A stretch of 64,000 nucleotides of DNA. Origin: Eledone cirrhosa (lineage: Eukaryota). The DNA is taken from assembly GCA_964016885.1 (NCBI GenBank), contig OZ024746.1:38874001-38938000 (forward strand), in the 5' to 3' direction. A program made the position numbers and the translations under genes. A model generated the notes under the pieces. That model was not told the origin of the DNA. It ran no database searches and saw only the letters and a list, made by a program, of their open reading frames with translations. This document shows positions 3,410-60,342 of this stretch, piece by piece. Positions within the stretch are counted from its first letter, which is position 1. Every line of letters begins with the position of its first letter.

Positions 3410-4066
3410 TCATCATCATCCTCATTATCATCATCATCCCTATTTAACATTTTTTCCATGCTAGCATGGGTTAGATGGGTTGTCCCATTTGTGACAGGGT
3501 GGGTCAGGTGACCATGTCTTGCTCATATAGAACTGTTTCTAGGTAGATTTCTACAACTGGATGCCCTTCCTAATGCCAACCATATTTACAGTGTGGACTG
3601 GGTGCTTTTTGTCGTGAGACCTACACAACCACTTTACAGTGTGGACTTGGTGCTTTTTGTTGTGAGACCTACACAACCACTTTACAGTGTGGACTGGGTG
3701 CTTTTTGTTGTGAGACCTACATGACCACTTTACAATGTGGACTGGGTGCTTTTTGTCATGACACCTACATGACCACTTTACAATGTGGACTGGGTGCTTT
3801 TTGCCATGACACCTACATGACCACTTTACAATGTGATTGGGTGCTTTTTGCCATGACACCTACACGACCACTTTACAATGTGGACTGGGTGCTTTTTGCC
3901 ATGACACCTACACGACCACTTTACAATGTGGACTGGGTGCTTTTTGCCATGACACCTACACGACCACTTTACAATGTGGACTGGGTGCTTTTTGCCATGA
4001 CACCTACACGACCACTTTACAGTGTGAGCTGGGTGCTTTTTGTCATGACTCTTACACAACCACTTT
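3410..4066 (-). mobile_element. RTE-LINE 3'UTR-derived repeat with internal 48-bp minisatellite (~10 copies, 3586-4066)
   Basis: (CAT)n tail and CTGGATGCCCTTCCTAA motif match the reverse complement of 62290-62545; unit CTGGGTGCTTTTTGCCATGACACCTACACGACCACTTTACAATGTGGA. Confidence 0.85.
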
Positions 4067-4793
4067 AAATATTTCTGAGAAGAGTAGGTTCCATCAAGTT
4101 ACTTGATCTTATTTCCATAATATAAAGATGAAGACATCAATGTCTAAACAACTCAACTATCCAATTGTATTATGGGACATTGATGTTTTAACGAAATATC
4201 TAATAGTGGGTAAGCTATCCAACTGGCAGTGAATGCAGGAATCTGTCAGTTTAAAATGAGATCAATTTTGGTGTATATGTGTGTATGTGAATGGGTATAC
4301 AGTTAACTGGTTGAAGGTAATCAATGAAATATTTAATATCTGGTGGCAAACTATAGAATATCAATCAGCCATATAATAAATATTAGACAACTGTATTGGA
4401 ATCGCAGTTCACTTGATAATATTGGTTAACTAACTGTCTGTGTAGATCAGATATCTATATATGTAATCTATCATTTAGAATGAACCAACAAGGGAGTTTC
4501 TATATAGTCACATGCACTACTAGAAACAGTAGCTAAATCTTCATCAAAGTACATTGTAGTATTTTAAATAAAGAAAGATACATTAGACAATAAAGTCTTT
4601 TAAAAAAAAGAACACATTAGATAATATAGTGCTAGATACACTATACCTGATTTTTTTTAAATTATCTTGTACATTTTTTGGTCAGAGATCTGTTCACTTA
4701 ATGTATTTAAACAACATCATCAACATCATTATGATGATCTTCCTTTGCAACTGAGATTGACTATCACCAGTCTATCGATTCTGTACACTCTTT

Positions 4794-12059: not shown

Positions 12060-12692
12060 ATCAATGTTTAACGTTCGTTTTTCCATACTAGCATGGGTTA
12101 GACGAGTTGTCCTGTTGGGAGAAATACCAGGTCAGATGACCATATCTTGCTGATACAGAACTGATTTTGGCTTAGTTTCTACAACTGGATGCTCTTCCTA
12201 ATACCAACCATATTTCCAGTGAGTACTAGATGCTTTTTGTTGTGACACCTACATGATCACTTTACAGTGAATACTAGAACTTTTTGTTGTGACACCTACA
12301 TGATCACTTTACAGTGAGTACTAGAGCTTTTTGTTGTGACACCTACATGATCACTTTTCAGTGAGTACTAGGTGCTTTTTGTTGTGACACCTACATGATC
12401 ACTTTACAGTGAGTACTAGAGCTTTTTGTTGTGACACCTACGTGATCACTTTTCAGTGAGTACTAGGTGCTTTTTGTTGTGACACCTACATGATCACTTT
12501 ACAGTGAATACTAGAGCTTTTTGTTGTGACACCTACATGATCACTTTACAGTGAGTACTAGAGCTTTTTGTTGTGACACCTACATGATCACTTTACAGTA
12601 AGGACTAGGTGCTTTTTATTGTGACACCTCCACAACCACTTTACAGTGTAGGCTGGGTGCCCTTCATTATGTCACTCACATGACCACCCTAC
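12060..12692 (-). mobile_element. RTE 3'UTR-derived repeat with 47-48-bp minisatellite (~10 copies, ~12215-12690)
   Basis: Unit GAGCTTTTTGTTGTGACACCTACATGATCACTTTACAGTGAGTACTA, homologous to the 3586-4066 unit. Confidence 0.85.
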
Positions 12693-12957
12693 ATTTCTCT
12701 TTTAAAATAGTAAGGTATAATTTGAAGGAAATGATTTAGCTGCTATTTCTAGTGCTCATATTGATATTCCCATCTGTCTTGTAATTATTTGATTTTGTTG
12801 TTTGTTTATTTGGTTTGATATTTCCCTCCTCACTAACCCTAATAAAGGAAATATACACAGACACACACATACACACATATGTGCATACAGGCCTACACTG
12901 AAACATAAACCTGCAAAATGAAATTTTTAAAAACTTAGAAAATATTTCCTAGCTTAC

Positions 12958-14985
12958 CTGTTTCATGCTGTAACTTAAGTCTGAACCACTAAAGTCAAGT
13001 TCTAAATCCTCATCAAGAATCTTTAAGGGTGAGGTCGAAATGTTGTCAGGGAATATATTATGCTCCCCGTGGTGGTCATTTGAATGATCAAGATCTGTCT
13101 GGATATTGTCTGAATTTAACCTGAAATTTGTTCCTGGTTTTATTCCTGTATCTAGCCCAGAATCAATATCTATTGCAGGTTCTGTTTTAGTTCTGGTCTC
13201 CTTAGAGTCAATTTCAGTGTTAGTCAGTGTTGATGGCTGGTGTTGAGGCTGCTGTTGATGTTGTGGCTGGTCATTGTGTTTCTGATTTTGAATTTTGGAG
13301 ATGACCTCTTGTGAAATGTCCCGGGCTTTTGAAATGGTAACCTCCCGTGATTGAGATGGATTTGGAACTATTTCTGAATTTATTTTTTGTTCTGGCTCTG
13401 AATTTGAAAGACCAGTACGAGGTTTTAGTGCTGGTGGAAGGAAGCGAGATGCAGGTGTGGTTACTCTCAGTGGCCTGGATAGCGAAGACGAAGTTGAAGA
13501 AGATAGAAAGGAAGGCAAAGAAGAGGAGAATATATTTGACAGTGAAGTTGGGGGGGTGGCTGTGGAGGTGATCACAGTGGGAAGCAGTGGGTCTTCTTCT
13601 AGAAGCTTGGACGGAGACGTGGACCGAGATACAGGCGAAACTGCTAATGGGTCCAAAGTTTGAACTGAAGAGGGTGGTTTTTGAAACTGTTGGAAGACCC
13701 GAGAAGATCCAGACCTGATGTCTGCTGATGAGAATATTGATGAGTTCAAGGGCCGGGTAGAATTCCTAGCTGCAACTGATGCTGCTGCTCCCACTACTGT
13801 TCTTTTTAGTGATGACTTGCTTAGGAAAGCATCAAGATAAGCAGCTTTAGTTACAGCTGATGTAGTAATAGTAGTGGCTGTTGTAGTAGTTGTAGCAACA
13901 GTCTGTAGTAATGGCCGTGTAGCTACCCTGCTACCAACAACACTGTATTTCTCCTTTACATCAACATTGTCAGCAGTAGCATCATCTTCAGCAGCAGCAG
14001 TTAACAGTGCCTTGTTGTCAGTGCATAATGCAAAAGCTTGAGGATTATCCCCAGCTGCGCACCACTCAGTCAAGCTGCTCATCCCAGCATTGTTATCCTC
14101 CCCAACACCTTCTTTCCACTTCTTTCTCTCAATCCTACTATCAATTTCCTTCTCACCTTTGCCCTTCCTTTCACTCATTCCTTCACACCCACTCTCATGC
14201 TTGCTCCTGCCCTCATCCTGTTGAGATCTCTCTTCCCAGCCACTCACACTGTCATTGTTACTCTCTCCCCACCTCTTCTTACCACTAATACTACTTCTAC
14301 TTCTCCCCTTGTCCTCTGTCATTTTCTCTGTATCTGTTGTTTCTCTCACCTTCTCCTTCTCTTTCTTCTCTTCACTAGCTCCACTTCCATAAATCTGTGT
14401 CTGAGGAACTTGCTTAAGATATGTACTTGAGGAAGACAGTTGGTGTTTCACTTGATTGTATGGATGGATGCGATCACTGGTACTGTTGCTGTTGTCATTA
14501 GAATCATGACCGTCGCCATCTTTCTGGTTAGCGCGGTGGACATTGTTGTTTTTGTTGATGTTAACTAGAGCATCATCTTTAGCATCATTGCAGTTATCAT
14601 ATTCAGCATTCTTGTTGTCATGGTTTTTGGGGGAACTGGCCACTCGCCAGCTACTCTGTTGTTGTATTTGCTGTTCTTCATCTTCTTGCGCTTGCCACGA
14701 CAATGGCCGCCAGGCCCTGAGACTGCTTCCCCTTTTTGTATATACCCTCCCTAACTCAGACTGTTCACCAACTGGTCCTTTCTCCTGCCCTAATATCTCA
14801 TCCAAAGTTTTCTCTGCCGACAAACTCCATCTTCTTACATCTCCACTTGCTATACCTCCAGCTGTCACTTTCTCTGCCTCCTTCCCTTCCTCATCCAAGC
14901 CTGTAATAGAGAGCTCTTTCTTCAGCCGTCGTTTTTCTTTCCAGCTTTCCAGGTAAGAGTCTCCCAGATCATCGTTACCAAACAT
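12958..14985 (-). CDS. large coding exon (probably the first coding exon) of an unidentified protein; S/T/E/K-rich, likely disordered
   Basis: 2-kb non-repetitive ORF, more GC-rich than its flanks, with ATG in AAAATG context. It ends at a phase-0 donor CAG|GTAAGC (12958/12957). An upstream acceptor TTTTTATTTTGCAG|G lies at 15087/15086, after a long pyrimidine tract. Confidence 0.8.
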
Positions 14986-15401
14986 TTTTTTCTTTTAAAA
15001 AAAGTCTTTAAAAAAAGTTTAAAAAAAAAAAATTCTGTGATGATAACTTTTGAGATTATCTCTAATCCACAGTAATCCAGTTCATCCTGCAAAATAAAAA
15101 AATAAATAGATAAATAGATATGCAAAATAAATGACAATAGAAAAAGAGGGATTGAGAAGGGGGAGGAAGAGAGATGTGGGTGAAGAGGGAGTATGCGAGG
15201 AAGAGAATAAGAGAAGGGAGTTAATATTTTTAAAAAGTACACAAGGAACAAGGAATTATGAAATGGCATGTGGCTAATTGTATGTGTGTGCGTGTGGTTG
15301 GAGGAGGTGGTGATGAAGGAGATGGTGATGAAGAGGTAGAGGAGATGGTGGAGGAAAAAAGGAAAGAAAGGGAATAAAAGTAATAGCAACAACAACATTA
15401 A

Positions 15402-39235: not shown

Positions 39236-39329
39236 CCAAAGTGGTTTTCCAAATTATGAAACACCACTTGATCAACTAATTTAAGTGCAAAGATATTGAA
39301 GTATTGGAAACCAGTTACTACTCCCCACT

Positions 39330-42300
39330 AACACCAACAACAGCAGCAACAGCACCAACACCACCAACACTATCAACACCACCAACACCACCACCAACAC
39401 CACCAACACTATCAACAGCACCAACAGCACCACCAACACCACCAACACTATCAACACCACCAACACCACCACCAACACCACCAACACTATCAACAGCACC
39501 AACAGCACCAACACCACCAACACTATCAACACCACCAACACCACCACCAACACCACCAACACTATCAACAGCACCAACAGCACCACCAACACCACCAACA
39601 CTATCAACAACACCAACACCAACACCACCAACACTATCAACAGCACCAACAGCACCACCAACACCACCAACACTATCAACACCACCAACACCACCACCAA
39701 CACCACCAACACCACCAACACCAACACCACCACCAACACTGTCAACAGCACCAACACCACCACCAACACCACCAACACCACCACCAACACCACCAATACT
39801 ATCAACACCACCAACACCACCACCAACACCATCAACACCACCAACACCACCACCAACACCACCAACACTATCAACACCACCACCAACACCACCAACACCA
39901 CCAACACCACCAACACCACCAACACCACCAACACGACCAACACCACCACCAACACCACCAACACTATCAACAGCACCAACACCAACACCACCACCAACAC
40001 CACCAACACCACCACCAACACCACCAACACTATCAACAGCACCAACACCACCACCAACACCACCAACACTATCAACAACACCAACACCACCACCAACACC
40101 ACCAACACTATCAACAACACCAACACCACCACCAACACCACCAACACTATCAACAACACCAACACCACCACCAACACCACCAACACTATCAACAGCACCA
40201 ACACCACCACCAACACCACCAACACTATCAACACCACCAACACCAACACCACCACCAACACCACCAACACCACCACTAACACCACCAACACTATCAACAG
40301 CACCACCAACACCACCAACACTATCAACAACACCAACAGCACCACCAACACCACCAACACTATCAACAACACCAACACCACCACCACCAACACTATCAAC
40401 AGCACCAACACCACCAACACTATCAACAGCACCAACACCACCAACACTATCAACAGCACCAACACCACCAACACTATCAACACCACCAACACCAACACCA
40501 CCACCAACACCACCAACACCACCACTAACACCACCAACACTATCAACAGCACCAACACCACCACCAACACCACCAACACCAACACCACCACCAACACCAC
40601 CAACACCACCACTAACACCACCAACACTATCAACACCACCAACACCACCACTAACACCACCAACACTATCAACACCACCAACACCACCAACACTATCAAC
40701 AACACCAACACCACCACTAACACCACCAACACTATCAACACCACCAACACCACCACTAACACCACCAACACTATCAACACCACCAACACCACCAACACTA
40801 TCAACACCACCAACACCACCACTAACACCACCAACACTATCAACACCACCAACACCACCAACACTATCAACAACACCAACACCACCAACACTATCAACAA
40901 CACCAACACCACCACCACCACCACCAACACTATCAACAGCACCAACACCACCACCACCATCAACACTATCAACAACACCAACACCACCACCAACACCACC
41001 AACACTATCAACAGCACCAACACCACCACCAACACCACCACCAACACCACCACCAACACCACCAACACTATCAACAACACCAACACCACCACCAACACCA
41101 CCAACACTATCAACAGCACCAACACCACCAACACTATCAACAGCACCAACACCACCAACACTATCAACAGTACCAACACCAGCACCACCACCAACACTAT
41201 CAACAATACCAACACCACCACCACCAACACTATCAACAACACCAACACCACCACCAACACCACCAACACTATCAACAACACCAACACCACCACCAACACC
41301 ACCAACACTATCAACAACACCAACACCACCACCAACACCACCAACACTATCAACAGCACCAACACCACCACCAACACCACCAACACTATCAACAGCACCA
41401 ACACCAACATCATCACCAACACCACCAATACTATCAACAGCACCAACACCAACATCACCACCAACACCACCAACACTATCAACAGCACCAACAGTGTTAA
41501 CAGCACCAACACCACCACTAACACCACCAACACCACCACCAACACCACCAACACTATCAACAGCACCAACACCAACATCACCACCAACAGCACCAACAGC
41601 ACCAACACCAACACCACCACCAACACTGTCAACAACACCAACACCACCACCAACACCACCAACACTATCAACAGCACCAACACCAACACCACCAACACTA
41701 TCAACAGCACCAACACCAACACCAACACCAACACCACCAACACTATCAACAGCACCAACACCAACACCACCAACACTATCAACAGCACCAACACCAACAC
41801 AACCACCAACACCACCACCAACACCACCAACACTATCAACAGCACCACCAACACCACCAACACCACCAGCAGCGCCATCATCACCATCAACAGAACCAAC
41901 ACATTCACTAACAACAATATCACCACCACCACAAGCACCAACATCTCAACACCACCAACAGCACCACCAATGCCTCCATCACCCACACCATCACCACCAA
42001 CAGCACCCCCAACGATCCCACCACCAACACCACTACCATCAACACCACCACCAACACCACCACCACTAACACCACCACCACCAACACCACCACTACCATC
42101 AACAGCACCACCAACACCTCCACCACCAACACCACCACCAACGACCCCACCAACGACCCCACCACCAACACCACCAACAACGACCCCACCACCAACACCA
42201 CTACCAACACCACCACCACAACCACCACCATCAACACAACCATTAACAACACTATCACCACTATCACAAACACCATCATCAGCAATACCAACAATAACAT

Positions 42301-42480
42301 TAACACCACCACTACCAACTACAACACCACCACTACCACTCTCAACACCACAAACAACGCTATCACCTTCAATACCACTACCAACACCACCATCAACACT
42401 CTCACCTCTTACACCACTACCATCAATACTATCATTGCCAACATCACTACCAACACTGTCACCTCCACCAACACCACCAT
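39330..42480. repeat. 3.1-kb degenerate (CCA/ACA)n array with recurring ACACTATCAACA
   Basis: Triplets are nearly all CCA, ACA, CTA, TCA or GCA. Confidence 0.9.
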
Positions 42481-42736
42481 TCAATCAATAATTGTTTCTA
42501 CTTTAGGCACAAGGCCAGCAATTACCCAGTACATTACTGGTACTTTATTTTATCGACCCCGTAAGGATGAAAGGCAAAGTTAACCTTGGCGGGATTTGAA
42601 CTCAGATTCAATCAATAATTACTTAAATTTATTGAAGTTGTGATTCACACCTTTCTTCTATGTGTGTCTCTCTCTCCCTCTCTCTCTATCTCTCTCTATA
42701 TATATATCCCTCTCTCAATCTATCTCTATCTCTGTC

Positions 42737-49016: not shown

Positions 49017-49474
49017 AACATATCAATATATATGTATCCATACTCATATATATACATACACAATATATATATATATATATAGGGAGAGAGTTGCAGGTAT
49101 TTATCTATATAAATATATATATATATATATGAGTCCCTGGTTCAATTGGGGCTGTTTGTATGTTTGTGTGTCTATAGGTACTTGAATGTGAATGTGAACC
49201 TTGTTTTTAATTTGTGTCAGTGTGTTAATGTGTATATTTCTAAAAATATTTTTTTTAAAGAATCCCTCTTCTTTAAAATCCCTAGGCAAATAACCTCTAC
49301 TCATCCTCAAAACCAGCACCTTCCCCAACCACCAGAAAAAATATAAATACCACCATATTACAATAGTAGTTGTAGAAGTAATTTCTATATTAAATTTTAT
49401 ATATATATATATATATTATTGAGTAAAATGACAGGAGGCTGGACTGGTGAAATTCCTTCAAAGATTTATTTTAG

Positions 49475-52400
49475 CAAACACTATATACATTTAAGTGACC
49501 AAGTTATGTAAGATCCAGGTGTCAACATATGTCAAACACTATATACATTTCAGTGACCAAGTTATGTAAGATCCTGGTGTCAACATATGTCAAACACTAT
49601 ATACATTTAAGTGACCAAGTTATGTAAGATCCAGGTGTCAACATATGTCAAACACTATATACATTTCAGTGACCAAGTTATGTAAGCTCCTGGTGTCAAC
49701 ATATGTCAAACACTATATACATTTAAGTGACCAAGTTATGTAAGATCCTGGTGTCAACATATGTCAAACACTATATACATTTAAGTGACCAAGTTATGTA
49801 AGCTCCTGGTGTCAACATATGTCAAACACTATATACATTTCAGTGACCAAGTTATGTAAGCTCCTGGTGTCAACATATGTCAAACACTATATACATTTAA
49901 GTGACCAAGTTATGTAAGATCCTGGTGTCAACATATGTCAAATACTATATACATTTCAGTGACCAAGTTATGTAAGATCCTGGTGTCAACATATGTCAAA
50001 CACTATGTACATTTCAGTGACCAAGTTATGTAAGCTCCTGGTGTAAACATATGTCAAACACTATATACATTTCAGTGACCAAGTTATGTAAGATCCTGGT
50101 GTCAACATATGTCAAACACTATATACATTTCAGTGACCAAGTTATGTAAGCTCCTGGTGTCAACATATGTCAAACACTATATACATTTCAGTGACCAAGT
50201 TATGTAAGCTCCTGGTGTCAACATATGTCAAACACTATATACATTTCAGTGACCAAGTTATGTAAGCTCCTGGTGTCAACATATGTCAAACACTATATAC
50301 ATTTCAGTGACCAAGTTATGTAAGATCCTGGTGTCAACATATGTCAAACACTATATACATTTCAGTGACCAAGTTATGTAAGATCCTGGTGTCAACATAT
50401 GTCAAACACTATATACATTTCAGTGACCAAGTTATGTAAGATCCTGGTGTCAACATATGTCAAACACTATGTACATTTCAGTGACCAAGTTATGTAAGAT
50501 CATGGTGTCAACATATGTCAAACACTATGTACATTTCAGTGACCAAGTTATGTAAGATCCTGGTGTCAACATATGTCAAACACTATGTACATTTCAGCGA
50601 CCAAGTTATGTAAGATCCTGGTGTCAACATATGTCAAACACTATGTACATTTCAGTGACCAACTTATGTAAGATCCTGGTGTCAACATATGTCAAACACT
50701 ATGTACATTTAAGTGACCAAGTTATGTAAGATCCAGGTGTCAACATATGTCAAACACTATATACATTTCAGTGACCAAGTTATGTAAGAACCTGGTGTCA
50801 ACATATGTCAAACACTATATACATTTCAGTGACCAAGTTATGTAAGATCCTGGTGTCAACATATGTCAAACACTATATACATTTCAGTGACCAAGTTATG
50901 TAAGCTCCTGGTGTCAACATATGTCAAACACTATGTACATTTCAGTGACCAAGTTATGTAAGATCCTGGTGTCAACATATGTCAAACACTATATACATTT
51001 CAGTGACCAAGTTATGTAAGCTCCTGGTGTCAACATATGTCAAACACTATATACATTTCAGTGACCAAGTTATGTAAGATCCTGGTGTCAACATATGTCA
51101 AACACTATATACATTTCAGTGACCAAGTTATGTAAGTTCCTGGTGTCAACATATGTCAAACACTATATACATTTCAGTGACCAAGTTATGTAAGATCCTG
51201 GTGTCAACATATGTCAAACACTATATACATTTCAGTGACCAAGTTATGTAAAATCCTGGTGTCAACATATGTCAAACACTATATACATTTCAGTGACCAA
51301 GTTATGTAAGATCCTGGTGTCAACATATGTCAAACACTATGTACATTTCAGTGACCAAGTTATGTAAGATCATGGTGTCAACATATGTCAAACACTATGT
51401 ACATTTCAGTGACCAAGTTATGTAAGATCCTTGTGTCAACATATGTCAAACACTATGTACATTTCAGTGACCAACTTATGTAAGATCCTGGTGTCAACAT
51501 ATGTCAAACACTATATACATTTCAGTGACCAAGTTATGTAAGATCCTGGTGTCAACATATGTCAAACACTATGTACATTTCAGTGACCAAGTTATGTAAG
51601 ATCCTGGTGTCAACATATGTCAAACACTATATACATTTCAGTGACCAAGTTATGTAAGATCTTGGTGTCAACATATGTCAAACACTATGTACATTTCAGT
51701 GACCAAGTTATGTAAGATCCTGGTGTCAACATATGTCAAACACTATGTACATTTAAGTGACCAAGTTATGTAAGATCCAGGTGTCAACATATGTCAAACA
51801 CTATATACATTTCAGTGACCAAGTTATGTAAGAACCTGGTGTCAACATATGTCAAACACTATATACATTTCAGTGACCAAGTTATGTAAGATCCTGGTGT
51901 CAACATATGTCAAACACTATATACATTTCAGTGACCAAGTTATGTAAGATCCAGGTGTCAACATATGTCAAACACTAAATACATTTCAGTGACCAAGTTA
52001 TGTAAGATCCTGGTGTCAACATATGTCAAACACTAAGTACATTTCAGTGACCAAGTTATGTAAGATCCTGGTGTCAACATATGTCAAACACTATATACAT
52101 TTCAGTGACCAAGTTATGTAAGATCCTGGTGTCAACATATGTCAAACACTATGTACATTTCAGTGACCAAGTTATGTAAGATCCAGGTGTCAACATATGT
52201 CAAACACTATGTACATTTCAGTGACCAAGTTATGTAAGATCTGGTGTCAACATATGTCAAACACTATATACATTTCAGTGACCAAGTTATGTAAGAACCT
52301 GGTGTCAACATATGTCAAACACTATATACATTTCAGTGACCAAGTTATGTAAGATCCTGGTGTCAACATATGTCAAACACTATGTACATTTCAGTGACCA

Positions 52401-55400
52401 AGTTATGTAAGATCCTGGTGTCAACATATGTCAAACACTATGTACATTTCAGTGACCAAGTTATGTAAGATCCTGGTGTCAACATATGTCAAACACTAAG
52501 TACATTTCAGTGACCAAGTTATGTAAGATCCTGGTGTCAACATATGTCAAACACTATATACATTTCAGTGACCAAGTTATGTAAGATCCTGGTGTCAACA
52601 TATGTCAAACACTAAGTACATTTCAGTGACCAAGTTATGTAAGATCCTGGTGTCAACATATGTCAAACACTATGTACATTTCAGTGACCAAGTTATGTAA
52701 GATCCTGGTGTCAACATATGTCAAACACTAAGTACATTTCAGTGACCAAGTTATGTAAGCTCCTGGTGTCAACATATGTCAAACACTATATACATTTAAG
52801 TGACCAAATTATGTAAGCTCCTGGTGTCAACATATGTCAAACACTATGTACATTTCAGTGACCAAGTTATGTAAGATCCTGGTGTCAACATATGTCAAAC
52901 ACTATGTACATTTAAGTGACCAAGTTATGTAAGCTCCTGGTGTCAACATATGTCAAACACTATATATATTTCAGTGACCAAGTTATGTAAGATCCTGGTG
53001 TCAACATATGTCAAACACTATATACATTTCAGTGACCAAGTTATGTAAGATCTTGGTGTCAACATATGTCAAACACTATGTACATTTCAGTGACCAAGTT
53101 ATGTAAGATCCTGGTGTCAACATATGTCAAACACTATGTACATTTAAGTGACCAAGTTATGTAAGATCCAGGTGTCAACATATGTCAAACACTATATACA
53201 TTTCAGTGACCAAGTTATGTAAGAACCTGGTGTCAACATATGTCAAACACTATATACATTTCAGTGACCAAGTTATGTAAGATCCTGGTGTCAACATATG
53301 TCAAACACTATATACATTTCAGTGACCAAGTTATGTAAGATCCAGGTGTCAACATATGTCAAACACTAAATACATTTCAGTGACCAAGTTATGTAAGATC
53401 CTGGTGTCAACATATGTCAAACACTATATACATTTAAGTGACCAAGTTATGTAAGATCCAGGTGTCAACATATGTCAAACACTATATACATTTCAGTGAC
53501 CAAGTTATGTAAGCTCCTGGTGTCAACATATGTCAAACACTATATACATTTAAGTGACCAAGTTATGTAAGATCCTGGTGTCAACATATGTCAAACACTA
53601 TATACATTTAAGTGACCAAGTTATGTAAGCTCCTGGTGTCAACATATGTCAAACACTATATACATTTCAGTGACCAAGTTATGTAAGCTCCTGGTGTCAA
53701 CATATGTCAAACACTATATACATTTAAGTGACCAAGTTATGTAAGATCCTGGTGTCAACATATGTCAAATACTATATACATTTCAGTGACCAAGTTATGT
53801 AAGATCCTGGTGTCAACATATGTCAAACACTATGTACATTTCAGTGACCAAGTTATGTAAGCTCCTGGTGTAAACATATGTCAAACACTATATACATTTC
53901 AGTGACCAAGTTATGTAAGATCCTGGTGTCAACATATGTCAAACACTATATACATTTCAGTGACCAAGTTATGTAAGCTCCTGGTGTCAACATATGTCAA
54001 ACACTATATACATTTCAGTGACCAAGTTATGTAAGCTCCTGGTGTCAACATATGTCAAACACTATATACATTTCAGTGACCAAGTTATGTAAGCTCCTGG
54101 TGTCAACATATGTCAAACACTATATACATTTCAGTGACCAAGTTATGTAAGATCCTGGTGTCAACATATGTCAAACACTATATACATTTCAGTGACCAAG
54201 TTATGTAAGCTCCTGGTGTCAACATATGTCAAACACTATATACATTTCAGTGACCAAGTTATGTAAGCTCCTGGTGTCAACATATGTCAAACACTATATA
54301 CATTTCAGTGACCAAGTTATGTAAGCTCCTGGTGTAAACATATGTCAAACACTATATACATTTCAGTGACCAAGTTATGTAAGATCCTGGTGTCAACATA
54401 TGTCAAACACTATATACATTTCAGTGACCAAGTTATGTAAGCTCCTGGTGTCAACATATGTCAAACACTATATACATTTCAGTGACCAAGTTATGTAAGC
54501 TCCTGGTGTCAACATATGTCAAACACTATATACATTTCAGTGACCAAGTTATGTAAGCTCCTGGTGTCAACATATGTCAAACACTATATACATTTCAGTG
54601 ACCAAGTTATGTAAGATCCTGGTGTCAACATATGTCAAACACTATATACATTTCAGTGACCAAGTTATGTAAGATCCTGGTGTCAACATATGTCAAACAC
54701 TATATACATTTCAGTGACCAAGTTATGTAAGATCCTGGTGTCAACATATGTCAAACACTATGTACATTTCAGTGACCAAGTTATGTAAGATCCAGGTGTC
54801 AACATATGTCAAACACTATGTACATTTCAGTGACCAAGTTATGTAAGATCTGGTGTCAACATATGTCAAACACTATATACATTTCAGTGACCAAGTTATG
54901 TAAGAACCTGGTGTCAACATATGTCAAACACTATGTACATTTCAGTGACCAAGTTATGTAAGATCTGGTGTCAACATATGTCAAACACTATATACATTTC
55001 AGTGACCAAGTTATGTAAGATCTGGTGTCAACATATGTCAAACACTATATACATTTCAGTGACCAAGTTATGTAAGAACCTGGTGTCAACATATGTCAAA
55101 CACTATATACATTTCAGTGACCAAGTTATGTAAGATCCTGGTGTCAACATATGTCAAACACTATGTACATTTCAGTGACCAAGTTATGTAAGATCCTGGT
55201 GTCAACATATGTCAAACACTATGTACATTTCAGTGACCAAGTTATGTAAGATCCTGGTGTCAACATATGTCAAACACTAAGTACATTTCAGTGACCAAGT
55301 TATGTAAGATCCTGGTGTCAACATATGTCAAACACTATATACATTTCAGTGACCAAGTTATGTAAGATCCTGGTGTCAACATATGTCAAACACTAAGTAC

Positions 55401-58400
55401 ATTTCAGTGACCAAGTTATGTAAGATCCTGGTGTCAACATATGTCAAACACTATGTACATTTCAGTGACCAAGTTATGTAAGATCCTGGTGTCAACATAT
55501 GTCAAACACTAAGTACATTTCAGTGACCAAGTTATGTAAGCTCCTGGTGTCAACATATGTCAAACACTATATACATTTAAGTGACCAAATTATGTAAGCT
55601 CCTGGTGTCAACATATGTCAAACACTATGTACATTTCAGTGACCAAGTTATGTAAGATCCTGGTGTCAACATATGTCAAACACTATGTACATTTAAGTGA
55701 CCAAGTTATGTAAGCTCCTGGTGTCAACATATGTCAAACACTATATATATTTCAGTGACCAAGTTATGTAAGATCCTGGTGTCAACATATGTCAAACACT
55801 ATATACATTTCAGTGACCAAGTTATGTAAGATCTTGGTGTCAACATATGTCAAACACTATGTACATTTCAGTGACCAAGTTATGTAAGATCCTGGTGTCA
55901 ACATATGTCAAACACTATGTACATTTAAGTGACCAAGTTATGTAAGATCCAGGTGTCAACATATGTCAAACACTATATACATTTCAGTGACCAAGTTATG
56001 TAAGAACCTGGTGTCAACATATGTCAAACACTATATACATTTCAGTGACCAAGTTATGTAAGATCCTGGTGTCAACATATGTCAAACACTATATACATTT
56101 CAGTGACCAAGTTATGTAAGATCCAGGTGTCAACATATGTCAAACACTAAATACATTTCAGTGACCAAGTTATGTAAGATCCTGGTGTCAACATATGTCA
56201 AACACTATATACATTTAAGTGACCAAGTTATGTAAGATCCAGGTGTCAACATATGTCAAACACTATATACATTTCAGTGACCAAGTTATGTAAGCTCCTG
56301 GTGTCAACATATGTCAAACACTATATACATTTAAGTGACCAAGTTATGTAAGATCCTGGTGTCAACATATGTCAAACACTATATACATTTAAGTGACCAA
56401 GTTATGTAAGCTCCTGGTGTCAACATATGTCAAACACTATATACATTTCAGTGACCAAGTTATGTAAGCTCCTGGTGTCAACATATGTCAAACACTATAT
56501 ACATTTAAGTGACCAAGTTATGTAAGATCCTGGTGTCAACATATGTCAAATACTATATACATTTCAGTGACCAAGTTATGTAAGATCCTGGTGTCAACAT
56601 ATGTCAAACACTATGTACATTTCAGTGACCAAGTTATGTAAGCTCCTGGTGTAAACATATGTCAAACACTATATACATTTCAGTGACCAAGTTATGTAAG
56701 ATCCTGGTGTCAACATATGTCAAACACTATATACATTTCAGTGACCAAGTTATGTAAGCTCCTGGTGTCAACATATGTCAAACACTATATACATTTCAGT
56801 GACCAAGTTATGTAAGCTCCTGGTGTCAACATATGTCAAACACTATATACATTTCAGTGACCAAGTTATGTAAGCTCCTGGTGTCAACATATGTCAAACA
56901 CTATATACATTTCAGTGACCAAGTTATGTAAGATCCTGGTGTCAACATATGTCAAACACTATATACATTTCAGTGACCAAGTTATGTAAGATCCTGGTGT
57001 CAACATATGTCAAACACTATATACATTTCAGTGACCAAGTTATGTAAGATCCTGGTGTCAACATATGTCAAACACTATGTACATTTCAGTGACCAAGTTA
57101 TGTAAGATCATGGTGTCAACATATGTCAAACACTATGTACATTTCAGTGACCAAGTTATGTAAGATCCTGGTGTCAACATATGTCAAACACTATGTACAT
57201 TTCAGCGACCAAGTTATGTAAGATCCTGGTGTCAACATATGTCAAACACTATGTACATTTCAGTGACCAACTTATGTAAGATCCTGGTGTCAACATATGT
57301 CAAACACTATGTACATTTAAGTGACCAAGTTATGTAAGATCCAGGTGTCAACATATGTCAAACACTATATACATTTCAGTGACCAAGTTATGTAAGAACC
57401 TGGTGTCAACATATGTCAAACACTATATACATTTCAGTGACCAAGTTATGTAAGATCCTGGTGTCAACATATGTCAAACACTATATACATTTCAGTGACC
57501 AAGTTATGTAAGCTCCTGGTGTCAACATATGTCAAACACTATGTACATTTCAGTGACCAAGTTATGTAAGATCCTGGTGTCAACATATGTCAAACACTAT
57601 ATACATTTCAGTGACCAAGTTATGTAAGCTCCTGGTGTCAACATATGTCAAACACTATATACATTTCAGTGACCAAGTTATGTAAGATCCTGGTGTCAAC
57701 ATATGTCAAACACTATATACATTTCAGTGACCAAGTTATGTAAGTTCCTGGTGTCAACATATGTCAAACACTATATACATTTCAGTGACCAAGTTATGTA
57801 AGATCCTGGTGTCAACATATGTCAAACACTATATACATTTCAGTGACCAAGTTATGTAAAATCCTGGTGTCAACATATGTCAAACACTATATACATTTCA
57901 GTGACCAAGTTATGTAAGATCCTGGTGTCAACATATGTCAAACACTATGTACATTTCAGTGACCAAGTTATGTAAGATCATGGTGTCAACATATGTCAAA
58001 CACTATGTACATTTCAGTGACCAAGTTATGTAAGATCCTTGTGTCAACATATGTCAAACACTATGTACATTTCAGTGACCAACTTATGTAAGATCCTGGT
58101 GTCAACATATGTCAAACACTATATACATTTCAGTGACCAAGTTATGTAAGATCCTGGTGTCAACATATGTCAAACACTATGTACATTTCAGTGACCAAGT
58201 TATGTAAGATCCTGGTGTCAACATATGTCAAACACTATATACATTTCAGTGACCAAGTTATGTAAGATCTTGGTGTCAACATATGTCAAACACTATGTAC
58301 ATTTCAGTGACCAAGTTATGTAAGATCCTGGTGTCAACATATGTCAAACACTATGTACATTTAAGTGACCAAGTTATGTAAGATCCAGGTGTCAACATAT

Positions 58401-60137
58401 GTCAAACACTATATACATTTCAGTGACCAAGTTATGTAAGAACCTGGTGTCAACATATGTCAAACACTATATACATTTCAGTGACCAAGTTATGTAAGAT
58501 CCTGGTGTCAACATATGTCAAACACTATATACATTTCAGTGACCAAGTTATGTAAGATCCAGGTGTCAACATATGTCAAACACTAAATACATTTCAGTGA
58601 CCAAGTTATGTAAGATCCTGGTGTCAACATATGTCAAACACTAAGTACATTTCAGTGACCAAGTTATGTAAGATCCTGGTGTCAACATATGTCAAACACT
58701 ATATACATTTCAGTGACCAAGTTATGTAAGATCCTGGTGTCAACATATGTCAAACACTATGTACATTTCAGTGACCAAGTTATGTAAGATCCAGGTGTCA
58801 ACATATGTCAAACACTATGTACATTTCAGTGACCAAGTTATGTAAGATCTGGTGTCAACATATGTCAAACACTATATACATTTCAGTGACCAAGTTATGT
58901 AAGAACCTGGTGTCAACATATGTCAAACACTATATACATTTCAGTGACCAAGTTATGTAAGATCCTGGTGTCAACATATGTCAAACACTATGTACATTTC
59001 AGTGACCAAGTTATGTAAGATCCTGGTGTCAACATATGTCAAACACTATGTACATTTCAGTGACCAAGTTATGTAAGATCCTGGTGTCAACATATGTCAA
59101 ACACTAAGTACATTTCAGTGACCAAGTTATGTAAGATCCTGGTGTCAACATATGTCAAACACTATATACATTTCAGTGACCAAGTTATGTAAGATCCTGG
59201 TGTCAACATATGTCAAACACTAAGTACATTTCAGTGACCAAGTTATGTAAGATCCTGGTGTCAACATATGTCAAACACTATGTACATTTCAGTGACCAAG
59301 TTATGTAAGATCCTGGTGTCAACATATGTCAAACACTAAGTACATTTCAGTGACCAAGTTATGTAAGCTCCTGGTGTCAACATATGTCAAACACTATATA
59401 CATTTAAGTGACCAAATTATGTAAGCTCCTGGTGTCAACATATGTCAAACACTATGTACATTTCAGTGACCAAGTTATGTAAGATCCTGGTGTCAACATA
59501 TGTCAAACACTATGTACATTTAAGTGACCAAGTTATGTAAGCTCCTGGTGTCAACATATGTCAAACACTATATATATTTCAGTGACCAAGTTATGTAAGC
59601 TCCTGGTGTCAACATATGTCAAACACTATATACATTTCAGTGACCAAGTTATGTAAGATCCTGGTGTCAACATATGTCAAACACTAAGTACATTTCAGTG
59701 ACCATGTTATGTAAGCTCCTGGTATCAACATATGTCAAACACTATATACATTTCAGTGACCAAGTTATGTAAGATCCTGGTGTCAACATATGTCAAACAC
59801 TATGTACATTTAAGTGACCAAGTTATGTAAGCTCCTGGTGTCAACATATGTCAAACACTATATATATTTCAGTGACCAAGTTATGTAAGCTCCTGGTGTC
59901 AACATATGTCAAACACTATATACATTTCAGTGACCAAGTTATGTAAGATCCTGGTGTCAACATATGTCAAACACTAAGTACATTTCAGTGACCAAGTTAT
60001 GTAAGCTCCTGGTGTCAACATATGTCAAACACTCTATACATTTCAGTGACCAAGTTATGTAAGATCCAGGTGTCAACATATGTCAAACACTATATACATT
60101 TCAGTGACCAAGTTATGTAAGATCCAGGTGTCAACAT
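49475..60137. repeat. 58-bp tandem satellite, ~184 copies
   Basis: Unit CAAACACTATRTACATTTCAGTGACCAAGTTATGTAAGATCCTGGTGTCAACATATGT; the register shifts 2 nt per 60-nt line. Confidence 0.98.
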
Positions 60138-60145
60138 CAGGTGTT
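60086..60145 (-). ncRNA. hammerhead-like motif formed by the terminal satellite unit plus its flank
   Basis: AACAC-CTGATGT-TGACACCTGG..CTTGGTCACT-GAAA-TGTATA-TA-GTGTT. It has a 5-bp stem I, both core boxes (A9 changed to U), a near-palindromic stem III and an AUA triplet. Confidence 0.6.
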
Positions 60146-60287
60146 ATATAATAAAGGAATAATGGTAAACACAATCCAAGAGGCTATAAGAAAAGAAAGA
60201 AGAAAAAAAACAGAGAAAAATGTTTTTGACTCGAAGGCGATCAAGAGGGCCTGTTGTTGTCATATGTTGTTGTCTGTGTATATATAT

Positions 60288-60342
<55 letters not shown>

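Follow-up and report, generated by a model that had tools for sequence, protein, structure and literature searches.

A 58-bp tandem array in Eledone cirrhosa probably derived from the hammerhead segment of a truncated Penelope-type copy and predicted to be catalytically dead

The presence of a 10.7-kb run of hammerhead-like repeats at one site in the Eledone cirrhosa genome raises the question of whether it is a working ribozyme array or an ordinary satellite that happens to carry ribozyme-derived sequence. The two are easily confused: a hammerhead-looking satellite is not necessarily a retrozyme, since a dead fragment that has expanded by ordinary DNA processes looks alike. The window analysed was the 64,000-nt stretch at positions 38,874,001–38,938,000 (forward strand) of contig OZ024746.1, assembly GCA_964016885.1; all positions below are relative to it. 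An initial annotation had read the repeats as an amplified ribozyme segment of a Penelope-like pseudo-LTR that intact family members might cleave in trans. The origin proposed there was supported and the function was not: very probably, the array is a single-locus minisatellite made from a 54-bp hammerhead piece of a truncated, likely Penelope-type copy, which likely grew at the DNA level from an already decayed copy and, by prediction, has no catalytic activity.

Structure of the array and its single locus

The features of the locus, with the basis of each, are as follows.

49398–49416, no strand assigned: (TA)n run at the element 3′ end, the likely insertion target (sequence)
49414–49474, minus strand: parent-element 3′ flank, on the downstream side of the hammerhead (gapless alignment to family copy L002)
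49475–60137, minus strand: tandem array, 58-bp unit × ~184 (repeat call and unit anchors)
49591–52953, no strand assigned: 58-unit (3,363 bp) block, an exact repeat of the block starting at 56199 (exact-run comparison)
56199–59561, no strand assigned: second copy of the 58-unit block (exact-run comparison)
60086–60145, minus strand: sole near-complete hammerhead motif of the array; the cut site would be 60091/60090 (sequence read)
60145–60141 / 60090–60086, minus strand: stem I of this motif (sequence read)
60140–60134, minus strand: first box, CUGAUGU, with A9 lost (sequence read)
60102–60099, minus strand: GAAA box (sequence read)
60138–60263, minus strand: parent-element 5′ flank, as far as the 5′ truncation (alignment)
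60279–60338, no strand assigned: (TA)6 (60279–60290) followed by (AG)n, beyond the 5′ truncation (sequence)

Tandem-repeat analysis of 49475–60137 gave a period of 58, 183.9 copies and 96% matches, in agreement with the satellite originally described. Between unit anchors there were 183 whole units (178 of 58 bp and five of 57 bp) plus a 54-bp end unit; the whole units comprised 31 distinct sequences and differed from one another by 3.4%. Each unit consists of 54 bp of hammerhead segment, running from A6 to just past stem I, and a 4-bp filler, ACAT; it lacks C3-U4-G5 and the 5′ strand of stem I. The annotation had noted a replacement by TGACAT in internal units. The loss of C3-U4-G5 was indeed found, but only the four bases ACAT are new, because the TG closes the preceding unit.

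The minus strand at the right end read AACAC CTGATGT TGACACCTGG...CTTGGTCACT GAAA TGTATA TA GTGTTT, as first reported. Minus-strand counts over 49418–60280 were 150 for ACCAGG, 19 for ACCTGG, 176 for CTTGGT, 54 for ATGTACAT, 108 for ATGTATAT and one each for CTGATG and AATAAA. Stem II was thus ACCAGG in most units, as claimed; ACCTGG, which had been taken to mark the terminal unit, is not peculiar to it, since both end units have it. The perfect stem III palindrome was lost in the majority of units. The TA runs described on both sides of the element were also present.

A junction-spanning 23-mer matched 173 times in the 3.0-Gb genome, always within the window, and a looser junction pattern allowing a gap of 0–14 bases gave 75 matches, all 75 in the window. 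A 24-mer with an intact core had 97 exact copies in the genome, which were dispersed and never in short tandem. In assembled short-read contigs from one sample (three runs), the junction had a depth of 379–492 as against ~10 over a unique stretch of flank; these contigs may come from the very sample used for the assembly, and contig depth gives no copy number and leaves the exact array length unconfirmed. The high depth of the junction in these contigs shows that the array was not created by the assembly. The junction was ~40–50 times deeper than the unique flank, against the ~89 times implied by the assembly; this is about half the two-chromosome expectation, which may mean that the array is shorter or confined to one homologue. 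That the array is genuine but its length and block structure were inflated by misassembly would fit both this ratio and the 3,363-bp block recurring without one difference. An array on one homologue would, however, likewise halve the ratio, the blocks are of several sizes and are nested and offset from one another, as genuine tandem arrays show, and the joins with the parent element are clean on both sides; we consider such inflation improbable.

The parent family

As the annotation's reading implies, the two flanks belong together: they were contiguous around one hammerhead motif in 30/30 family loci examined (28 distinct places). The 3′ flank of the array was 85% identical over 109 bp to family copy L047, while the 5′ flank has ~15 bp deleted just upstream of the motif. 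The family core (CUGANGA, GAAA and a NUH triplet) was intact in 27 of 38 ungapped copies (five more, shifted or partial, were left out), a proportion biased upward because copies were picked with core-containing patterns; core and stems were both kept in 15 of the 38. Two subfamilies were distinguished. None of the 11 core positions differed between them, and each of the three stems showed a single compensatory base-pair change (C-G to U-A in stem I, A-U to G-C in stem II and U-A to A-U in stem III). Across 54 ungapped copies, with four indel-bearing ones set aside, 87.8% of cells were paired and 35 had changed on both sides, compared with 20–40% paired in slid controls; in effect this represents three events between the two subfamilies. 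The dispersed homologues therefore keep both the core and stem covariation, and the hammerhead reading survived this comparison. Judged from sequence, the family motif is credibly a type I hammerhead. Predicted monomer folds (z of −0.4 for subfamily A, −3.2 for subfamily B and +0.4 for the array) by themselves lend some support to subfamily B and none to subfamily A or the array.

An Rfam scan, a check proposed by the annotation, returned no hammerhead match at E ≤ 10 for three stretches, namely the end unit and one copy per subfamily; dimer-type Penelope hammerhead variants may fall outside the Rfam models. Hammerheads are carried by metazoan Penelope-like pseudo-LTRs (Cervera and de la Pena 2014, PMC4209133). 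As in the part of that work considered, the parent family motif is of type I, with a short stem I, a long stem II and a small palindromic stem III suited to dimers, and occurs mostly as single dispersed motifs, with some opposite-strand pairs 100–700 bp apart. It differs in that stem II has U-U at its base in place of G10.1-C11.1; U-U at this place is documented elsewhere (PMC3088659; axolotl HHR_Amex2, PMC7229834). Unlike the elements described in PMC4209133, the parent has no RT gene between its direct repeats, and the array units hold only part of the motif.

The parent element is non-coding and 1.8–2.4 kb long. At L096 direct repeats (pLTR, partial tandem) carry two copies of the motif at a spacing of 1,778 bp; at L039 and L047 the unit is ~2.4 kb. 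An inverted partner copy was present at 6/28 places, and of 29 family 3′ ends, 13 ran into a microsatellite, 11 into element body and five into other sequence. Truncation at the 5′ end, inverted partner copies and microsatellite targets are features of Penelope-like elements (PMC8557442). An ORF for RT plus GIY-YIG was not found between the repeats, and DNA searches upstream of the element for an autonomous partner yielded no firm link to an RT/GIY-YIG gene. The end of a Penelope-type ORF (GIY-YIG end, beside L036) was joined to family body at one of 20 loci; this is probably a chimera, as the other 19 ORF copies lack the family body. Extending five of the 19, and one further locus, by ~5 kb revealed no family pLTR. 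Pfam named none of the Penelope-type fragments, which by their motifs and their relatives (one of four with PF00078) we take to be Penelope RT/GIY-YIG. An endonuclease fragment near L096 was considered as a partner and rejected, since a microsatellite separates it from the element. Structure and insertion marks thus uphold the Penelope link made by the annotation, while a coding partner was not firmly identified; on sequence grounds the parent is likely a non-autonomous Penelope-type element.

Loss of the hammerhead core and cleavage in trans

The annotation had recognised CUGAUG and GAAA boxes in the end unit. Both are present, but the first box is CUGAUGU instead of CUGAUGA, so that A9 is lost; stem II of this motif is also weakened, and the motif as a whole has a predicted fold of −5.9 kcal/mol (z +2.1). 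Position 9 was U in all 179 array units measured, whereas 36/38 ungapped family copies retained A9. A search of the array for CUGANGA or UUGANAA gave no matches, leaving it with no complete first core box. G12 was lost in 26/178 units and A16.2 in 17/178. Five differences from the subfamily majority were common to 178–179 of 179 units (5/54 positions, 9%, compared with a family mean of 7%). Changes in the hammerhead core usually lower activity (PMC3088659). With half of the cutting core missing, the array is most likely an inert, DNA-grown satellite, predicted from its sequence to be catalytically dead, and not a working ribozyme array. The junction sequences UUGACAU and UUGACAC were considered as a variant U3–A8 core and rejected, as both lack A9 and a preceding stem I strand.

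The missing half could in principle be supplied in trans. The array would then be transcribed in the hammerhead sense, and the 5′ cleavage products of dispersed intact copies would cut its RNA at each AUA, at 158 half-sites per transcript, releasing phased 58-nt pieces; a split hammerhead would be assembled from two unlinked loci, and the importance of the array would be greater. The substrate half-site is intact in 158/183 units, some family copies have both core and stems, as noted above, and 14 bp are possible with a family copy (eight in stem III and six in stem I; predicted hybrid −8.6 to −10.5 kcal/mol). Read-through in the required sense is possible, because the start of a same-strand host gene lies ~34.5 kb downstream of the array; since the first coding exon of this nearby gene starts near 14985, any of its exons beyond the array could only be 5′ untranslated ones. 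However, the site is predicted to be buried: for five inner sites of one 7-unit stretch, under a nearest-neighbour model without tertiary terms, opening costs 7.1–7.7 kcal/mol in array RNA against 2.9 in a family copy, leaving a net −1.1 to −3.4 kcal/mol against −7.6. Site-damaging variants have also spread in the array, the family is old (copies 5–7% from the family majority), and metazoan Penelope hammerheads cut poorly even in cis, according to the part of PMC4209133 considered. Cleavage in trans is therefore predicted to be possible on paper and weak, and that it takes place seems most improbable.

Origin of the array and comparison with known systems

The locus holds a short (~250 bp), 5′-truncated copy of a non-coding hammerhead-bearing element between TA repeats. 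This supports the local expansion within one such copy suggested by the annotation, and the following history would account for the array. The copy would have been inserted by a Penelope RT/endonuclease and would then have gathered ~9% changes, including the loss of A9, presumably before expansion. A tandem duplication of 54 bp with the 4-bp filler would have produced the first dimer; the filler is an inverted copy of the next four bases, which is what a repair or template-switch junction would leave. Slippage and unequal exchange may then have copied whole blocks of units until 10.7 kb was reached. Exact duplicated runs were 58, 33, 13 and 12 units long, and those of at least seven units took in 164/183 units, while the longest exact run in 300 shuffles of unit order was six. 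Exact repetition of blocks as long as 58 units suggests that growth was late, took place at the DNA level and started from a copy that had already decayed. On the order of events, the first duplication could instead have come before the shared differences were fixed, with homogenisation spreading them afterwards. The derived ACCTGG is found in both end units and the family state in most inner ones, a distribution that this history fits poorly.

Reverse transcription round a 58-nt RNA circle, with insertion in one step as in retrozyme-type rolling circles, would be another route. The monomer lies inside the 51–972 bp range reported for animal retrozymes (10.64898/2026.07.22.740005) and the parent bears Penelope-type ends. 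Yet the array unit is predicted to be unable to cut itself, the junction is at a distance from the cut site and contains four foreign bases, the 58-bp unit occurs at one locus only, and one circle would not give 31 variants arranged in exact kilobase blocks; we find this route scarcely credible. Compared with animal non-LTR retrozymes and newt satellite 2, the array is alike in being a tandem from a Penelope-like hammerhead end, with a copy number near their reported maxima of 180–300 (PMC7229834; 10.64898/2026.07.22.740005). In the parts of these sources considered, retrozymes need two or more successive units that each contain the whole hammerhead, are dispersed and are transcribed. The array differs in that none of its units holds a complete hammerhead, the genome-wide junction search found no dispersed copies of the unit, and both parent flanks are retained. 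Local amplification from a Penelope end has been proposed (10.64898/2026.07.22.740005).

A recurring cause can be added to local DNA-level growth, and is compatible with it: the hammerhead segments of Penelope ends might be hot spots where satellites arise, with the first duplication promoted by the palindromes and stems. The array would then belong to a class and represent a failed proto-retrozyme, its core having been cut through by the junction. In favour of this, nearly all of the duplicated 54 bp fall within the 62-bp motif, and the unit junction forms an 8-bp palindrome inside a longer quasi-palindrome. Against it, the motif already makes up a quarter of a 250-bp copy, a genome-wide pattern search found no second array of the hammerhead segment, and there was no other tandem repeat over the motif in 105 fetched loci (many overlapping and not all of the parent family), where the only clear tandem of family sequence was a 51-bp triple in the element body. 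A hot spot is thus rather unlikely; were such arrays enriched at hammerhead motifs, they would show how the first retrozyme dimer could arise at the DNA level, and this one would gain in importance.

Set beside other repeats, the array is a well-traced but ordinary transposon-derived minisatellite, in which an internal segment of a dispersed element has expanded between its own flanks at one locus. Minisatellites derived from transposable elements number in the thousands and include Ms6-hm and Hm-2, in MaLR LTRs, and Alu-derived cases (PMC9659126); in these, too, an internal piece of a dead non-autonomous element expands between intact flanks. The source here differs in being a ribozyme motif, and no Penelope case was found in the part of PMC9659126 considered. 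A literature search of partial coverage found no description of a satellite of core-less hammerhead segments or of the parent family. The array offers a clean, traceable instance of satellite birth within a transposon end, in which the parent family, the founder mutations, the junction and the block duplications can all be read.

Structure of the array and its dispersed relatives

Tandem Repeats Finder placed a single array at 49475-60137 (period 58, 183.9 copies, 96% matches), divisible into a 54-bp end unit and 183 complete units, of which 178 are 58 bp and five are 57 bp long, with 31 distinct sequences. The hammerhead-like motifs listed in the initial annotation were all present in the window. 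CUGAUG and GAAA occur in the end unit as described, but its first core box is incomplete, reading CUGAUGU and lacking A9. The unit is a 54-bp duplication plus four new junction bases; of the TGACAT replacement proposed for the inner monomers, only ACAT is new sequence. Oddly, the derived ACCTGG is present in both end units, although most inner units have the family form ACCAGG. In short-read contigs (one sample, three runs; possibly the assembled sample) the junction had a depth of 379-492, whereas a unique stretch of flank had about 10, so the array is real and large; about 89 copies of the same junction words are implied by the assembly, and contig depth does not confirm the exact length.

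Of 743 candidates from a right-flank search of the 3.0-Gb genome, 41 were scored matches. Thirty loci at 28 places were fetched, and in every one the two flanks were contiguous, overlapping on one copy of the 54-bp segment. This supports the proposal that the array expanded from a segment of a Penelope-like element, whose flanks should rejoin elsewhere. A 24-mer that includes an intact first box occurs in 97 exact, dispersed copies in the genome. The family hammerhead has stem I AAACAC/GUGUUU, boxes CUGAUGA and GAAA and triplet AUA. Its stem III is a palindrome (AUGUACAU); its stem II is long and has an internal loop and, at the base, a U-U of the kind documented for active hammerheads in PMC3088659 and PMC7229834. 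Copies were selected by core-containing patterns; in 38 ungapped ones (five shifted or partial copies excluded), A9 was present in 36, the core was intact in 27, and core and stems together in 15.

The sequence downstream of the motif led to a sister subfamily. The majorities of the two subfamilies, A and B, differ at 20 of 66 columns (core, 0/11; stem, 9/30; other, 11/25), the stem changes including one compensatory pair per helix, one pair gained, one weakened and one broken. In 54 ungapped copies (four with indels excluded), 87.8% of cells were paired and 35 had changed on both sides, compared with 20–40% paired in slid controls; this covariation represents about three independent events, not 35. 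Core conservation and stem covariation, both anticipated for dispersed copies, were thus observed; a covariance-model match, also suggested, was not, the Rfam models matching neither the end unit nor either subfamily. In family alignment A1 (columns 29-36), the loop II sequence of subfamily A is itself palindromic (UUACGUAA) and might provide a second dimer contact; this palindrome is broken in the array.

Nature of the parent element

An upstream walk showed a non-coding unit in each subfamily, measuring about 2.4 kb in A and 1.78 kb in B; the subfamily B locus L096 has the motif twice, in direct repeats. Family copies are 5′-truncated, with an inverted partner at 6 of the 28 places, and their 3′ ends enter microsatellites (13/29) or continue into the next unit (11/29). 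Direct repeats, 5′ truncation, inverted partners and 3′ ends in microsatellites are marks of Penelope-like elements, as described in PMC8557442 and PMC4209133. The suggested adjacency to a Penelope-type RT/GIY-YIG frame was seen at one locus, where a broken frame is joined to the family body; 19 of the 20 loci with that ORF end lack this body, so the link is weak. The parent is likely a non-autonomous Penelope-type element.

At the fetched loci L081 and L082 (G000:C13:23431000-23446000) a broken Penelope-type ORF directly joins the non-coding family body, possibly a template-switch chimera, and part of the ORF end recurs in inverted orientation 5 kb away. In L019, another locus, a 51-bp triple tandem (1739-1893) lies in the family body and not near the hammerhead.

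Growth and cleavage potential of the array

A junction 23-mer matched 173 times genome-wide and 173 times inside the window, and a looser pattern 75 times in each; since these counts are equal, the unit exists at one locus only. Relative to the subfamily majority, five changes, including A9U and a disruption close to the stem II base, are common to 178-179 of the 179 units measured. They affect 9% of the segment, a level close to the family decay of 7%, while units diverge from one another by 3.4%. The simplest reading is that the founder copy decayed before expansion, although the fixed differences may have been homogenised later. Unit order is repeated exactly over stretches of 58 (3,363 bp), 33, 13 and 12 units, and exact runs at least seven units long take in 164 of the 183 units (300 shuffles gave runs of six at most). 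Such block-ordered variants disfavour reading round one small circle and point to copying of DNA blocks. The ACAT filler inverts the next four bases and may have been left by a repair or template-switch junction. No second tandem covering the motif was found among the fetched loci, which therefore give no support to a duplication hot spot there. At L001, two inverted copies of the family GAAA–stem III–stem I segment form a hairpin (positions 2-198), a second rearrangement with the motif at its centre.

Neither CUGANGA nor UUGANAA occurs in the array. A9U by itself cripples hammerhead cleavage. The end unit folds worse than its shuffles (z +2.1). Core changes usually lower activity, according to PMC3088659. 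G12, the general base according to PMC6155905, is lost in 26 of 178 units and A16.2 in 17, and only 54 units retain the perfect stem III palindrome; these losses give no indication that the motif is under selection in the array. A ribozyme function of the array is therefore unsupported.

The substrate half-site is kept in 158 of the 183 units, where 14 base pairs with a family copy are possible, so that cleavage in trans would be geometrically sound. In the array's own predicted fold the junction pairs with this site, which would therefore be costly to open: 7.1-7.7 kcal/mol, whereas a family copy needs 2.9, with net energies of −1.1 to −3.4 against −7.6 kcal/mol (five array sites, tertiary terms not included). 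Even in cis, cleavage by the Penelope hammerheads of metazoans is weak, as stated in PMC4209133. That the array serves purely as a substrate, its RNA being cut in trans, seems very improbable.

The array works like transposon-derived minisatellites and falls within their definition as given in PMC9659126. Non-LTR retrozymes, in contrast, have a complete motif in consecutive units and a dispersed unit, whereas the array has no complete motif and a single locus. Local amplification from a Penelope end is proposed as the start of retrozymes in a 2026 preprint (10.64898/2026.07.22.740005). Literature searches found no paper on an array of core-less hammerhead segments. Overall, the initial observation was confirmed and its interpretation partly supported, in origin and not in function.

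Other hammerheads and neighbouring features

At the fetched locus L077 (G000:C1780:33500-38600), complete hammerheads of another family occur four times at 312-bp spacing, with an additional inverted copy, forming a retrozyme-like array. The fetched loci also contain about 20 more hammerhead-like motifs (e.g. at L071, L074, L082, L083, L084), which belong to several other families, differ in their stems and share the palindromic stem III layout. Other features of the window were:

12952-14994, minus strand: initial coding exon of a host gene, an open frame of 681 aa
60467-62146, plus strand: open frame of 560 aa that contains RVT_1 and a PHD-like finger
39280-42488: 3-kb 9/39-bp repeat
3585-4067 and 12213-12648: related 47-48-bp tandem arrays, 9-10 copies

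The host gene exon lies about 34.5 kb from the array on the same strand; its relatives are named Octopus proteins (45% identity across a quarter of its length), which marks the host as an octopod, and no Pfam domain was found in the frame. The 560-aa frame is a LINE fragment, 130 bp past the parent element on the opposite strand and unrelated to it. The repeat at 39280-42488 has several frames, rich in Thr/Pro or Thr/Asn, that stay open for 900-1,060 codons, and could be either a mucin-like exon or a plain repeat. The arrays at 3585-4067 and 12213-12648 are pieces of a common dispersed repeat.
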